A DNA stretch of 9,974 bases from a virus. Lineage: Duplodnaviria > Heunggongvirae > Uroviricota > Caudoviricetes. The notes under the pieces were generated by a model. It ran no database searches. It was not told the DNA's origin and was given only the letters and a program-made list of their open reading frames with translations. Of the stretch, positions 2,372 through 7,534 are shown in pieces (position 1 is the stretch's first letter; each line of letters opens with the position of its first letter). A program made the translations under genes and the position numbers. The stretch is taken from the IMG/VR virus record IMGVR_UViG_2541047897_000006, one strand, 5' to 3'.

Positions 2372-3310
2372 ATGAATATTTCCGATATTCGCGCAGGACT
2401 GCGCACGCTTGTAGAAAATGAAGAAACCACCTTTAAACAAATTGCTCTTGAGAGCGGACTTTCTACCGGAACTATCAGTAGTTTTATCAATGATAAGTAC
2501 AACGGGGATAACGAGCGTGTTTCACAAATTCTGCAACGCTGGCTGGAAAAATATCATGCAGTTGCAGAACTACCTGAACCGCCCCGCTTTGTGGAAACGC
2601 AGACGGTAAAACAAATCTGGACAAGTATGCGTTTTGCCAGCCTGACTGAAAGTATTGCTGTTGTATGTGGCAATCCTGGTGTGGGCAAAACCGAAGCGGC
2701 CCGTGAATATCGCCGCACCAATAACAACGTCTGGATGATCACCATTACGCCATCCTGTGCCAGCGTTCTGGAATGTCTTACTGAACTGGCGTTTGAGCTG
2801 GGAATGAATGACGCACCACGCCGTAAAGGGCCACTCTCTCGCGCCCTGCGACGTCGCCTTGAAGGTACACAGGGGCTGGTTATCATCGACGAAGCTGATC
2901 ATCTTGGTGCCGAAGTTCTGGAAGAACTCCGCCTGTTACAGGAATCAACCCGCACTGGCCTTGTGCTGATGGGAAATCACCGGGTTTATTCAAATATGAC
3001 GGGGGGTAACAGAACGGTTGAATTTGCCCGTCTGTTTTCCCGTATTGCAAAGCGCACTGCAATTAATAAAACCAAAAAAGCCGATGTAAAAGCTATTGCG
3101 GATGCCTGGCAGATTAACGGCGAAAATGAACTGGAGTTATTACAGCAGATTGCGCAGAAACCAGGTGCGCTTCGCATTCTGAATCATTCACTTCGCCTTG
3201 CCGCCATGACGGCTCACGGTAAAGGTGAGCGTGTTAACGAAGATTATCTGCGTCAGGCTTTCCGTGAATTAGACCTGGACGTTGATATTTCAACGCTGCT
3301 GCGTAATTAA
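2372..3310 (+). CDS. B: Transposition ATPase / target-DNA activator B (MuB family, AAA+)
   Basis: 312-aa ORF, the same length as Mu B. Walker A motif GNPGVGKT and Walker B motif LVIIDEADHL are present. It lies directly downstream of A with a GAGG RBS. Confidence 0.95.
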   Translation: MNISDIRAGLRTLVENEETTFKQIALESGLSTGTISSFINDKYNGDNERVSQILQRWLEKYHAVAELPEPPRFVETQTVKQIWTSMRFASLTESIAVVCGNPGVGKTEAAREYRRTNNNVWMITITPSCASVLECLTELAFELGMNDAPRRKGPLSRALRRRLEGTQGLVIIDEADHLGAEVLEELRLLQESTRTGLVLMGNHRVYSNMTGGNRTVEFARLFSRIAKRTAINKTKKADVKAIADAWQINGENELELLQQIAQKPGALRILNHSLRLAAMTAHGKGERVNEDYLRQAFRELDLDVDISTLLRN

Positions 3311-3325
3311 GAAGGAGAAGAAATT

Positions 3326-3553
3326 ATGATGGCCCGAAATATAAAAATGGCAACGGATGCGCAGAACTGGTTACAGGCGCGCGGGAGTCATGTAAATGAA
3401 TCATATCTCGGCGTGGCGCGTCCGATTCTTGAAATCACTTACCCACCGGTGGAACTGGTAAAAAGCGCGGTCAGAATTATGGAGCATAAGTCCGGGGTGG
3501 CCCGTTCTGTATGGACGGCCCGTCTTAATGGTTGCCAGATTATCTGGAGATAA
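3326..3553 (+). CDS. kil: Small early protein, probable Kil (host-killing) by position
   Basis: 75-aa ORF with a strong AAGGAG RBS 8 nt upstream. It is the first gene after B, which is where kil (about 74 aa) maps in Mu. The sequence has no diagnostic motif, so the assignment is positional only. Confidence 0.45.
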
Positions 3554-3555
3554 CG

Positions 3556-3786
3556 ATGTGTATTAAAGCTGAAAAATATATTGAATGGGTTAAACACTGT
3601 CAGTGCCACGGGGTGCCGCTGACGACATATAAATGCCCCGGATGTGGTGAACAGATTATGACGCAATGCTCACCCGAAAAGGAAATTCGGGATTCCCTGA
3701 CATGTTGTCCGTGGTGCAGCGCGGTTTTCTTTAAGCAGGTAAAAGGCGCGAAGGTAAAAGCCAGCGCAGTTATTCAGAATCAATAA
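3556..3786 (+). CDS. Cys-rich small protein, putative zinc ribbon (function unknown)
   Basis: The ATG at 3556 is preceded by GGAGA and sits 2 nt after the upstream stop; the ORF track extends the frame to 3532 but the RBS favours 3556. The protein contains HCQCH, CPGCG and CCPWC, with CxxC pairs about 20 residues apart. Confidence 0.65.
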   Translation: MCIKAEKYIEWVKHCQCHGVPLTTYKCPGCGEQIMTQCSPEKEIRDSLTCCPWCSAVFFKQVKGAKVKASAVIQNQ

Positions 3787-3797
3787 GGAGAAACAAA

Positions 3798-4067
3798 ATG
3801 GCAAAGGTTATCTTTGAGTTTACATGGCTGGAAAGTAGTGACGGTTGCAATGGGCGCAGAGAAGTTCTGGATGCAAAAGCATGTCTTGCAGATATCTCGC
3901 CAACGGAAAATACCGGGCCTCATGATTTACTGGCAAATATCGTCCTGACTATGGCTCCTGAAATTATTAAAAAGGCCAAAGATGAGATGCTGACCACTAT
4001 GAAGAAAGTGGGTATGGAAGCTGAATGTGATTTAGTACCACATCCGGTGAATGCGGTTAAACATTAA
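3798..4067 (+). CDS. Hypothetical early protein (89 aa)
   Basis: AAGGAG RBS with 7-nt spacing. The ORF is tightly packed in the + strand early operon. I recognise no motif. Confidence 0.65.
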   Translation: MAKVIFEFTWLESSDGCNGRREVLDAKACLADISPTENTGPHDLLANIVLTMAPEIIKKAKDEMLTTMKKVGMEAECDLVPHPVNAVKH

Positions 4068-4087
4068 TTCGCAAAGGAACGCTGACA

Positions 4088-4507
4088 ATGAACGTCAAAA
4101 TCCGAAATGAAATTCAGGCATTAATCCGAATTCAGGAACGCAATAACAACGGTGGTGAATTACGCGAGTTTATTTGCGCCCGAAAAGTTGATGATTGTGG
4201 TGAAAAGACTTACCTGATTGCTTTCGACCATTACAGCATCTGTGCGCGTTATTGCGGCGAAAGCATATCCCGCGCCATTGCATTTGGCGGTGCGTTCAAC
4301 GTGGATTTATGGGAGTACGTCATGGACCGGGAATACATCTGCGCATCAGACCCTGAAGCCCGTGAAATGTGGCAGCGTATCTGGCGCGATTACCGGTTAA
4401 TGGCAAAAGGCTGGGCGCGCAGCTGTTATTCCTCGCTTGCCCTGAAAGCGGTTCAGTTATCGCTGCGGCATATTCCGGCATCACTGCGCGAGCCTCTGTT
4501 GTACTGA
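4088..4507 (+). CDS. Hypothetical early protein (139 aa), possible Cys cluster
   Basis: AAAGGAA RBS with 7-nt spacing. The stop is immediately followed by the next ORF's start. Cysteines in FICARKVDDCGEKT...SICARYCGES could form a metal site, but this is uncertain. Confidence 0.65.
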   Translation: MNVKIRNEIQALIRIQERNNNGGELREFICARKVDDCGEKTYLIAFDHYSICARYCGESISRAIAFGGAFNVDLWEYVMDREYICASDPEAREMWQRIWRDYRLMAKGWARSCYSSLALKAVQLSLRHIPASLREPLLY

Positions 4508-6000: not shown

Positions 6001-6531
6001 GTGATTGATGCAAAAGTTCTGAATGGTGTCAGCACATTATTACGGGCTTACGGGCGTCTGACCTGCGGGGTTCTGGCTGAAAAAATGCAGATGCCATCCT
6101 CCGCAATGGTGTACTTCCTGCGTGATGCGGTTGATGCCGGAATGCTGACTGAACTTAATGGTTTTTACGACGTACCGCGTCCCCGTACAGAGCAGCCTGT
6201 AAGACGAAACGCAACTGAGCAGCCTGCTGTTGATGATGCCGCGTGGTGTTCCTTCCGCCGCTCATTGCCCTGGCTAGAAGGCAATGCCATTCCGGCGCTG
6301 GCAAAAGAATTTGCAACAGGCGTACTGACCTGCGAGTCGGTTTACATCGTTGCGGAAGTGGATGACGAAATGTGCAAACAGGGAATGCCCCGTTTTGTGA
6401 TGGCTTATATCGATATCCGGCTGGGGCGTTTTATTTGTGGTTCCAGTAGCTGGAATATCACCGACCACGTCCTGCGCTATCTCATTCTTGATTTCTCAAC
6501 GGCTCCCGAAGCAGCACAGGAGGTGGCGTGA
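6001..6531 (+). CDS. Hypothetical early protein (176 aa), GTG start, possible N-terminal winged-helix
   Basis: GTG at 6001 is preceded by GGAGGA at 5988-5993 and is the only in-frame start near the 5' end. The N-terminal segment STLLRAYGRLTCGVLAEKMQMPSSAMVYFLRDAVDAGML resembles a winged-helix DNA-binding fold (weak inference). The stop overlaps the next start. Confidence 0.6.
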   Translation: MIDAKVLNGVSTLLRAYGRLTCGVLAEKMQMPSSAMVYFLRDAVDAGMLTELNGFYDVPRPRTEQPVRRNATEQPAVDDAAWCSFRRSLPWLEGNAIPALAKEFATGVLTCESVYIVAEVDDEMCKQGMPRFVMAYIDIRLGRFICGSSSWNITDHVLRYLILDFSTAPEAAQEVA

Positions 6532-7061
6532 TGTTTTTTAAAACGTCAAATCCCGCAGCACTGCTGGCGTGGGAGCAGTTTATGGCGGACTGCCTGAAAC
6601 TACGCGAAGAAGCCCGCCATCTTGATAAGGTTCTGGGTTGTGGTTGCCGGTCAGTATTCAGCACAGGTATTGGTGGGCGTTATTTTCATGGTGTGAACTT
6701 TCCGGGGAATGAGCGCCCTTTCTCGCGGGAGCTGTGGACCGTACAACGGCCCGCATCAGGTAACAGTTGCAGGCCCAGAACTTCGCGGATACCTGTTCAT
6801 CTCAGGGAGCAGGCAAAAGAGCTGGCGAAAATATGGCAGGAGAATATTCCGGTCACTTATGCCCGCACAGATGCTCTTTTACCCGCACTGGGACTGGATT
6901 TCAGCGCAACAATATTCGGACCTCTCCAGTGGTTCCGTGTTGGTGATGTGATTTACGTCATGACGGGGATGACACCCGCACAAGGCCGCATGACTGAAAT
7001 CCTTTCTGACGAATTTATCCGGGCGCAAAAACAGGCGGAGGTAAACAATGGAAAACAATGA
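6531..7061 (+). CDS. Hypothetical early protein (about 176 aa)
   Basis: AGGAGG RBS at 6518-6523. ATG 6531 shares a nucleotide with the upstream TGA stop (TGATG coupling); the ORF track starts one codon earlier at GTG 6528. I recognise no motif. Confidence 0.65.
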   Translation: MFFKTSNPAALLAWEQFMADCLKLREEARHLDKVLGCGCRSVFSTGIGGRYFHGVNFPGNERPFSRELWTVQRPASGNSCRPRTSRIPVHLREQAKELAKIWQENIPVTYARTDALLPALGLDFSATIFGPLQWFRVGDVIYVMTGMTPAQGRMTEILSDEFIRAQKQAEVNNGKQ

Positions 7062-7230
7062 AACATCGTATTCGTGGCTGGGGGTATTCACCACGGTGAA
7101 ACAGGAATGCCAGACCTGCGGTAATGAATCCCCTGAATATCTGAAAGAGTGCCCTCATTGTGGCGGGCAGAAATGCAACCACTGCGATATGGGCGATGAC
7201 ACGGCGTGCATGAATTGTGAAGGTGAATAA
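7048..7230 (+). CDS. Cys-rich mini-protein with four CxxC motifs (putative zinc ribbon)
   Basis: 60-aa ORF with a GGAGG RBS 7 nt upstream. It contains CQTC, CPHC, CNHC and CMNC. Its 5' end overlaps the upstream ORF by 14 nt in another frame. Confidence 0.6.
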   Translation: MENNETSYSWLGVFTTVKQECQTCGNESPEYLKECPHCGGQKCNHCDMGDDTACMNCEGE

Positions 7231-7231
7231 T

Positions 7232-7534
7232 ATGAATAATGAAACTAAATTTACTCCCCTTAATATTGATAACGTCATGGCTGAAAAAGGGATGCTGGAA
7301 CGTGTTCGCGCTATCGTTGAATATGGTATTAAGCATGAACTCACCGCCAGAGAAGTCCGTGACATTATCAACCGCGAAATGAATCGTCTGGAAACAGTAG
7401 TGGCACTGCAAAATGAAACAGCCCGCGAGGAGTACATCCGCCGCAGGCTGGGGTTATCAGACCAGGATATTGTTACTGACGCTCATGTGTTTGAGGCTTT
7501 TGAGATCCGTCAGCATCTGGGCCTTACGAACTGA
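7232..7534 (+). CDS. Hypothetical early protein (about 100 aa)
   Basis: ATG 7232 is preceded by GAAGGTGA with 5-nt spacing; the ORF track alternative is GTG 7217. It starts 1 nt after the upstream stop. I recognise no motif. Confidence 0.6.
   Translation: MNNETKFTPLNIDNVMAEKGMLERVRAIVEYGIKHELTAREVRDIINREMNRLETVVALQNETAREEYIRRRLGLSDQDIVTDAHVFEAFEIRQHLGLTN

Follow-up and report, generated by a model that had tools for sequence, protein, structure and literature searches.

The window examined here, the whole 9,974-nucleotide stretch of the IMG/VR virus record IMGVR_UViG_2541047897_000006, represents the left (early) end of a transposable phage of the Mu type and carries, in this order, ner, A, B, kil, several small open reading frames (ORFs) in a row, gam, gemA, mor, C, and lys. 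Within the small-ORF run lies a cysteine-rich ORF that is almost certainly the already catalogued, uncharacterised gene 6 of phage Mu, whose product, gp6, has the anatomy of a zinc ribbon with a single four-cysteine (C4) site. Our analyses strongly support that gene 6 is a conserved protein-coding gene of the early (Pe) operon, located directly after kil, and a member of the family PF26833. The overall explanation, which joins this identity to a proposed role for gp6 in the newly entered host cell, blends parts held with different confidence and, as a whole, could equally well prove right or wrong.

Gene 6 and the predicted zinc site of gp6

The ORF runs on the + strand from an ATG at 3556 to a TAA at 3784-3786, and its 76-residue translation, MCIKAEKYIEWVKHCQCHGVPLTTYKCPGCGEQIMTQCSPEKEIRDSLTCCPWCSAVFFKQVKGAKVKASAVIQNQ, matches phage Mu gp6 (Mup06, NP_050610, "previously called E5"), a protein with a "hypothetical" annotation, at 100% amino acid identity. 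Its position between kil and gp7 is also that of Mu gene 6, whereas its DNA differs from that of Mu by three synonymous changes, and the adjoining gp7 is an allele other than that of Mu; the DNA of the region is 99.8% identical to Escherichia virus Mu_3F6. In a profile search, gp6 matched PHROG 3786, a family with no assigned function, over residues 1-76 (E=1.1e-40), and the Pfam assignment to PF26833 ("Phage_Mu_gp6"), of which Mu gp6 is the founder, was found precomputed on the 99%-identical cluster representative and on all other close homologues. Our own Pfam scan of gp6 returned only sub-threshold generic zinc-ribbon matches, because the PF26833 model was absent from the scanned set, and an NCBIfam scan likewise gave only sub-threshold matches of this kind. 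A preliminary description of the window, made from its letters, had pointed to a 76-residue protein right after a kil candidate, with nine cysteines and the motifs HCQCH, CPGC, and CCPWC; all of these lie where it had placed them, and the upstream gene is indeed kil. Its further statement that no characterised zinc-ribbon protein was known at this position in Mu holds with respect to function, but it overlooks the catalogued entries gp6/Mup06, NP_050610, and PF26833.

The nine cysteines occupy positions 2, 15, 17, 27, 30, 38, 50, 51, and 54, and the two histidines positions 14 and 18. Since cysteine makes up 1.6% of the residues in the 14 other + strand ORFs of the window, nine or more cysteines among 76 residues would arise with a probability of 4.6e-6, and the cysteine richness of gp6 is therefore far above chance. 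The CPGC motif comprises residues 27-30, and CCPWC comprises residues 50-54 (nt 3703-3717), with a spacing of 20 residues from C30 to C51.

To place these residues in their family, a profile search was made against a library of 1.84 billion proteins, which recovered 198 cluster representatives at E<=1e-3, mostly 70-100 amino acids long. This protein-level conservation shows that gene 6 is a real gene, and the homologous clusters keep the motif pattern down to about 25% identity. All conservation percentages given here and in Table 1 refer to an alignment of 132 of the 198 representatives. In addition to the two cysteine pairs and the acidic/aromatic motif listed in the table, the conserved positions comprise Y8 (81%), an aromatic residue at 11 (88%), T36 (80%), and K60 (86%); C2, H14, C15, C17, H18, C38, and C50 are not conserved. 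Moreover, 108 of the 132 members contain only four or five cysteines, so that the nine of Mu gp6 are an outlier, and the gp6 proteins of SfMu and PhiR68_1 have RVQNN in place of HCQCH. Because only four cysteines are conserved family-wide, the alignment strongly supports one C4 site of the form CPxC...(20 residues)...CPxC, built from C27, C30, C51, and C54 and predicted to bind zinc; the remaining five cysteines and the two histidines are, with equally strong support from the alignment, a peculiarity of the Mu lineage.

The structural model agrees with this anatomy. AlphaFold runs with eight sequences were inconsistent (best pLDDT 89, others 42-62), whereas with 112 diverse sequences all five models exceeded 91, the best reaching a pLDDT of 93.4 and a pTM of 0.78. 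In this model a helix (residues 3-17) is followed by five strands (residues 22-26, 33-37, 44-50, 57-63, and 66-71), and the loops of the first two hairpins hold the conserved cysteine pairs, as in a zinc ribbon. We therefore regard gp6 as a predicted one-domain mini-protein, in which an N-terminal helix packs on a five-stranded zinc ribbon, a description that the model strongly supports. Profile search and structure prediction, which the preliminary description had proposed as checks, thus bore out its zinc-ribbon fold for CPGC and CPWC, but not for the other five cysteines: its picture of all nine cysteines arranged as several knuckles fails, as HCQCH falls within the predicted helix, and the conservation across homologues on which it had made the proposal depend was found for four cysteines and not for five.

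Relatives of known structure were not found: a profile search of PDB sequences with gp6 gave a best E value no lower than 0.2, a Foldseek search of the model against the PDB gave a best E value of 0.49, and a structure search of BFVD returned only uncharacterised phage proteins, which are members of the family itself. The FmdB-type zinc ribbon (TIGR02605, CxxC_CxxC_SSSS; PHROG 1076) resembles gp6 in having two CxxC pairs at similar spacing and matches it weakly over residues 19-66, but the score of 18 bits against a cut-off of 31.3 rejects gp6 as a member. The P2 Ogr and P4 Delta proteins and the TraR/DksA-type regulators are comparable to gp6 in that they are encoded by temperate phages and have about 70 residues and one C4 zinc site. 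The zinc site of Ogr is N-terminal, TraR/DksA proteins contain a coiled coil, and Mu uses Mor and C for its middle and late transcription; a relationship of gp6 to either group was rejected, as there was no profile match and the topology differs.

In all Mu-type phages gene 6 resides directly 3' of kil, and in the Mu early operon it lies between B/kil and gam. The kil stop codon (TAA, 3551-3553) is separated from the gene 6 ATG by a gap of 2 nt, and this stop/start layout, together with the Shine-Dalgarno sequence at the end of kil, suggests that translation of the two genes may be coupled. A promoter and terminator scan of positions 3200-4200 returned nothing above chance on the + strand; the early timing of gene 6 expression is taken from what is established for the Mu Pe transcript.

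Table 1. Gene 6, its motifs and predicted elements, and the adjoining features of the window
Feature	Position	Strand	Basis
Gene 6 coding sequence (gp6/Mup06, formerly E5), 76 residues plus stop	3556-3786	+	ORF list; 100% amino acid identity to NP_050610; PHROG 3786; PF26833
Predicted N-terminal α-helix, residues 3-17, with Y8 and aromatic 11	3562-3606	+	AlphaFold model; alignment
HCQCH (H14 C15 Q16 C17 H18), Mu-lineage specific, at the C-terminal helix end, outside the conserved metal site	3595-3609	+	Alignment
Hypervariable patch of 105 nt, codons 14-49, separating the two gp6 alleles	3596-3700	+	Window versus PhiR68_1
First putative zinc knuckle, C27-P-G-C30, loop between strands 22-26 and 33-37	3634-3645	+	C27 92%, P28 98%, C30 98%
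Acidic/aromatic motif, E43-x-W45-D46-S/T47, start of strand 3	3682-3696	+	E43 51% (68% acidic), W45 73%, D46 89%, S/T47 95%
Second putative zinc knuckle, C51-P-W-C54, loop between strands 44-50 and 57-63	3706-3717	+	C51 99%, P52 94%, C54 100%
GGAG Shine-Dalgarno sequence, 6-nt spacer before the gene 6 ATG, inside the kil 3' end	3546-3549	+	Read from sequence
kil, upstream gene, same early operon	3326-3553	+	PHROG 2743 "Kil", E=4e-43; annotated in the Mu, D108, and SfMu records
gp7, downstream gene; its AGGAG ribosome-binding site overlaps the gene 6 stop codon	3798-4067	+	Sequence

A second cysteine-rich mini-ORF lies elsewhere in the window, at 7048-7230 (+). It encodes 60 residues with eight cysteines in four CxxC pairs (CQTC, CPHC, CNHC, and CMNC), a count sufficient for two zinc sites; its matches are weak only (LapB-rubredoxin and DnaJ-CXXCXGXG, E about 1e-3), and it shares its first bases with the end of the ORF at 6528-7061 upstream and its last bases with the start of the ORF at 7217-7534 downstream.

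Allelic variation among Mu-like phages

Gene 6 occurs as two alleles, one in Mu, D108, Mu_3F6, and the window, and the other in SfMu and PhiR68_1. Within the gene, 35 of the 37 nucleotide differences between the window and PhiR68_1 fall inside the 105-nt patch, which encodes the last part of the helix, the first knuckle, and the E-x-W-D-S strand of gp6; the flanks of the patch are 98-99.6% identical, and in the same 742-nt comparison kil shows one difference and gp7 six. Between the alleles, gp6 has a nucleotide identity of about 84%, a synonymous divergence (dS) of 0.36, and a ratio of nonsynonymous to synonymous divergence (dN/dS) of about 0.41 (0.3-0.5). For all pairs of kil the corresponding values are 96.5-100% identity, a dS of 0-0.15 (0-0.1 for window pairs), and a dN/dS of 0-0.14, and for all pairs of B they are 97-99.6% identity and a dN/dS of 0.08-0.2 (one outlier, 0.47). 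By these estimates gp6 is under purifying selection, with dN/dS below 1, and the patch marks residues 14-49 as the part of the protein that is free, or driven, to differ. In D108, a stop codon replaces Q74 of gp6 (locus L003, 1757-1987), leaving 73 residues, and the final QNQ is therefore dispensable.

The downstream gene gp7 occurs in at least three strongly divergent forms, namely that of the window, Mu_3F6, and PhiR68_1, that of Mu and SfMu, and that of D108, which agree only in the first ~5 residues and at a few further positions. Among Mu, SfMu, PhiR68_1, and the window, the gp6 and gp7 alleles combine in all four ways, which argues that the two proteins probably work independently. Cassette exchange is thus concentrated locally in the gp6-gp7 segment of an early operon that is otherwise 97-99% identical. 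On the scale of the window, the Yersinia phages vB_YpM_5 and vB_YpM_6 are, among the megablast matches listed, the only ones to match over its whole length; for Mu, SfMu, Mu_3F6, and the other listed records, the match starts at about position 2243. Since the match to the Mu group begins there, ner and most of the transposase gene A appear to be a different allele from that of Mu, and the window a mosaic.

Distribution of the family in phages, prophages, and plasmids

Among sequenced phages, the gp6 family is present in the Mu group, Chi-like Salmonella phages (gene 72), Serratia phage Smarc5, and several genera of Pseudomonas phages. In these records its members are always annotated as "hypothetical" and always reside in strings of small same-strand ORFs (Chi, Smarc5, SS2019XI, and KPP25). 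Homologues on metagenomic contigs occupy strings of the same kind; on one contig, DUF3164, GemA, and Mor genes lie close to the homologue, within a Mu-like prophage. In Escherichia coli, the gp6 ORF is present in 38 of 5426 complete genomes; phage records do annotate the gene and the RefSeq (PGAP) E. coli genomes mostly do not, so that this conserved small gene is systematically missed in their annotation.

A scan of bacterial genomes located the family in Martelella (alphaproteobacteria), in Achromobacter and Rhodocyclus (betaproteobacteria), and in Vreelandella, Pseudomonas, Rudaea, and Yersinia (gammaproteobacteria); a scan that used close-homologue alignment only gave no match to the family. 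Three of the seven bacterial loci (Martelella, Rhodocyclus, and Rudaea) are Mu-like prophages, whose transposases are 30-43% identical to Mu A or to the transposase of locus L007. In each of them the gp6 homologue resides 3' of gene B, directly in Rudaea, at about 0.5 kb in Martelella, and at about 2.2 kb in Rhodocyclus.

An all-against-all BLAST comparison of neighbouring ORFs from 13-14 loci showed gp6 to be the sole protein common across the phage groups, with no conserved neighbour, and a known anti-defence gene adjoining gp6 was found neither in Mu nor in the other phages examined. In the metagenomic protein P0086 (237 residues), a dATP/dGTP pyrophosphohydrolase domain (PF04447, E=1e-22) is followed by a gp6 domain at the C-terminus. 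No other gp6 fusion has a partner of known family, and P0086 possibly results from a gene-calling merge of two adjacent genes. The other extensions within the gp6 family matched no known family, and fusions thus gave no consistent functional clue.

NinX genes lie near gp6 homologues in unrelated elements (L006, 8266-9831; L021, 8029-8442; L023, 7519-7929). In a metagenomic phage, four tandem NinX paralogues adjoin the homologue directly on its 3' side, together with a DNA methylase gene; in the plasmid pSTY, one copy lies ~0.8 kb 3', and a copy identical to it is present in Pseudomonas ceruminis. Judging by gene order, NinX and gp6, two families without an assigned function, may be recurrently associated.

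The plasmids that carry the family comprise conjugative plasmids of the P. syringae group (MOBP/MPF_T), P. aeruginosa plasmids of about 50 kb, and the MOBF megaplasmid pSTY. Here the homologues are located inside long strings of small ORFs that all point the same way and that follow ParA, an SOS-response-associated peptidase (SRAP), or a PapB/FocB-like regulator, the last of which is found upstream of the homologue in two plasmid lineages. In two P. aeruginosa plasmids, the strand of the gp6 homologue also carries a DNA cytosine methylase gene and acrF3/acrF or acrF1. A divergent umuDC lies at the edge of the string in pSTY, another plasmid and a chromosomal island each carry a UmuC homologue just downstream, and umuDC, SRAP, or methylase genes flank the string in other plasmids. 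Further, one P. aeruginosa plasmid copy (L018, 7001-7243) shares 68% identity with gp41 of the Casjensviridae Pseudomonas phage vB_Pae-SS2019XI (L012, 3486-3725). Because of this identity, we conclude that the gene moves between types of mobile element, and the pair indicates a probable plasmid-phage exchange within one host genus.

Anti-defence islands have been described in the leading regions of conjugative plasmids, where they are bounded by oriT and umuCD, and about 10% of leading-region families carry phage annotations (PMC11541004). The plasmid strings that hold gp6 homologues are similar to these islands (PMC11541004) in their small same-strand ORFs, in methylase and SRAP genes nearby, and in umuDC at their edge; acr genes are present at a distance of about 6 kb, in two of the plasmids.

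Candidate roles of gp6

We propose that gp6 would act alone, without a conserved phage partner, as a small adaptor produced in the first minutes after DNA entry. Its zinc site would only stabilise the fold. Residues 14-49, at the end of the helix, in the first knuckle, and in the E-x-W-D-S/T strand, would form the surface that touches a host macromolecule, most likely a protein; this is the part of gp6 in which the alleles differ. The contact would aid the establishment of incoming mobile DNA, either (i) by countering defence or (ii) by modulating the DNA-damage/repair response. A comparison class is provided by small stand-alone zinc ribbons that clamp larger partners, namely the amino-group carrier protein LysW/ArgW, the sarcosine oxidase delta subunit, MasE of (1-methylalkyl)succinate synthase, and the zinc finger of ZitP; early counter-defence genes are, like gp6, small, autonomous, first-expressed, and common to phages and plasmids. 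We favour the host-directed stand-alone adaptor tentatively, with somewhat less than even confidence. A counter-defence role specifically is doubtful, and it is similarly doubtful that PF26833 is an unrecognised "first-in" establishment or counter-defence factor common to phage early operons and plasmid leading-region islands of alpha-, beta-, and gammaproteobacteria, in which a fast-changing surface (residues 14-49) on a zinc-stabilised scaffold would set which host protein or immune system is neutralised.

In laboratory K-12, gene 6 would be dispensable for Mu growth, like the rest of the semi-essential (SE) region. Such dispensability fits the semi-essential status of the region, which can be deleted and holds 14 ORFs, most of them unassigned (PMC3325207). 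The host-killing activity of the region has been attributed to kil or to these unassigned ORFs (PMC3325207), and gp6 might be one of the classical Mu semi-essential functions arm and cim.

Several observations weigh against the adaptor and counter-defence proposals. With regard to defence, gp6 matches no known anti-defence protein in sequence or fold, and in a PADLOC scan Mu gp6 had no match and two homologues had chance-level matches only (E about 0.04). The acr genes of the two P. aeruginosa plasmids lie about 6 kb downstream of the gp6 homologue, so that the association with anti-defence genes is circumstantial, and the term "leading region" is, for the gp6-bearing plasmids, a resemblance drawn from gene layout alone. 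The hypervariable patch looks like an exchanged allele or cassette rather than proven diversifying selection, because dS is raised along with dN (dN/dS<1). In Mu, Mu_3F6, and the window, residue 45 within the best-conserved non-cysteine motif is Arg (R45; CGG, nt 3688-3690), where 73% of the family, including D108, SfMu, and PhiR68_1, has Trp, and in the Salmonella cluster P0005 (74 member sequences) a Tyr replaces the predicted zinc ligand C30; these two changes suggest that some prophage copies may be impaired or decaying. Further, a literature search on Mup06, Mu gp6, PF26833, PHROG 3786, the semi-essential region, and cim/arm turned up no study of function, most of the 38 E. coli genomes that contain the ORF have no PGAP feature for it, and Mu gp6 itself is basic (net charge +4), which is compatible with nucleic-acid binding. 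Copies of gp6 with R45 that are 100% identical in DNA sequence occur in natural E. coli isolates, and R45 is therefore no laboratory artefact.

The basic charge of the Mu protein bears on the best-surviving alternative, in which gp6 would be a nucleic-acid-binding zinc ribbon, acting as an early regulator of transcription or translation or as a factor on incoming or transposing DNA. Many zinc ribbons do bind nucleic acids, and the sub-threshold profile matches of gp6 include TFIIB, Top1, FmdB, and archaeal ribosomal zinc ribbons; the family positions 14, 16, and 60 are mostly basic, and genes of DNA metabolism are frequent among the neighbours (B, Gam, RdgC, methylases, umuDC, and SRAP). However, no match of gp6 to a DNA- or RNA-binding family rose above threshold, and a solved homologue was not found. 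The net charge of the family is centred on 0 (range -8 to +12), with many acidic members, and its best-conserved non-cysteine residues, E43, W45, and D46, are acidic or aromatic. This charge distribution and these residues speak somewhat more for a protein than for a nucleic acid as the target, and the nucleic-acid reading is unlikely.

A second metal or redox site, formed in the Mu allele only by H14, C15, C17, and H18 with C2, C38, or C50, is improbable. None of these extra cysteines and histidines is conserved in the family, close relatives differ (RVQNN in SfMu and PhiR68_1; C2, C17, and C38 absent from P0002), and, with four or five cysteines in 108 of the 132 members, such a site would be at most a one-allele add-on and not the basis of the family's function. 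It draws its appeal from the nine cysteines and two histidines among only 76 residues, from the position of H14, C15, C17, and H18 on consecutive turns at the helix end of the AlphaFold model, and from the unchanged state of the Mu-type allele in natural E. coli isolates.

Gene 6 could also encode an accessory or chaperone of a phage neighbour, such as a modulator of Kil or gp7, as its invariable place after kil in Mu-type phages, at a 2-nt gap, and the host killing assigned to the SE region (PMC3325207) might imply. We consider this very improbable, since Kil and gp7 homologues are not nearby in the Chi-like, Pseudomonas, and metagenomic phages, the plasmids, or the distant Mu-like prophages that carry gp6, gp6 and gp7 alleles reassort freely, and kil is almost invariant against two alleles of gp6.

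The automatic JGI/IMG names "DNA-directed RNA polymerase subunit RPC12/RpoP" and "transcription elongation factor Elf1" would make gp6 a relative of other small C4 zinc ribbons, but the RpoP and Elf1 Pfam families are not among the gp6 matches even at E<=1, and there is no structure match either. RpoP/RPC12 and Elf1 belong to archaeal and eukaryotic polymerases, which are absent from gp6 hosts; the labels are generic zinc-ribbon mislabels, and the relationship is effectively refuted. Finally, a chance ORF, for which its shortness and the lack of PGAP annotation in most E. coli genomes carrying it might speak, is refuted by conservation, given the 198 homologous clusters with the motif pattern, the purifying selection, the good Shine-Dalgarno sequence, the tight operon packing, and the confident structure prediction.

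In summary, the finding is a rediscovery of an annotated hypothetical gene in one of the best-studied phages and, as such, adds little. What is added here is (i) that the predicted zinc site is one C4 site and not several; (ii) that gp6 has two alleles, differing in a 105-nt patch; (iii) that gene 6 retains a place 3' of gene B in Mu-like prophages from three classes of proteobacteria; and (iv) that it is also present in non-transposable phages and in plasmid regions resembling anti-defence islands. Should the proposed role prove true, one of about ten orphan ORFs in the semi-essential region of Mu would gain a function, and a widespread family would join the factors by which mobile DNA establishes itself in a new cell.

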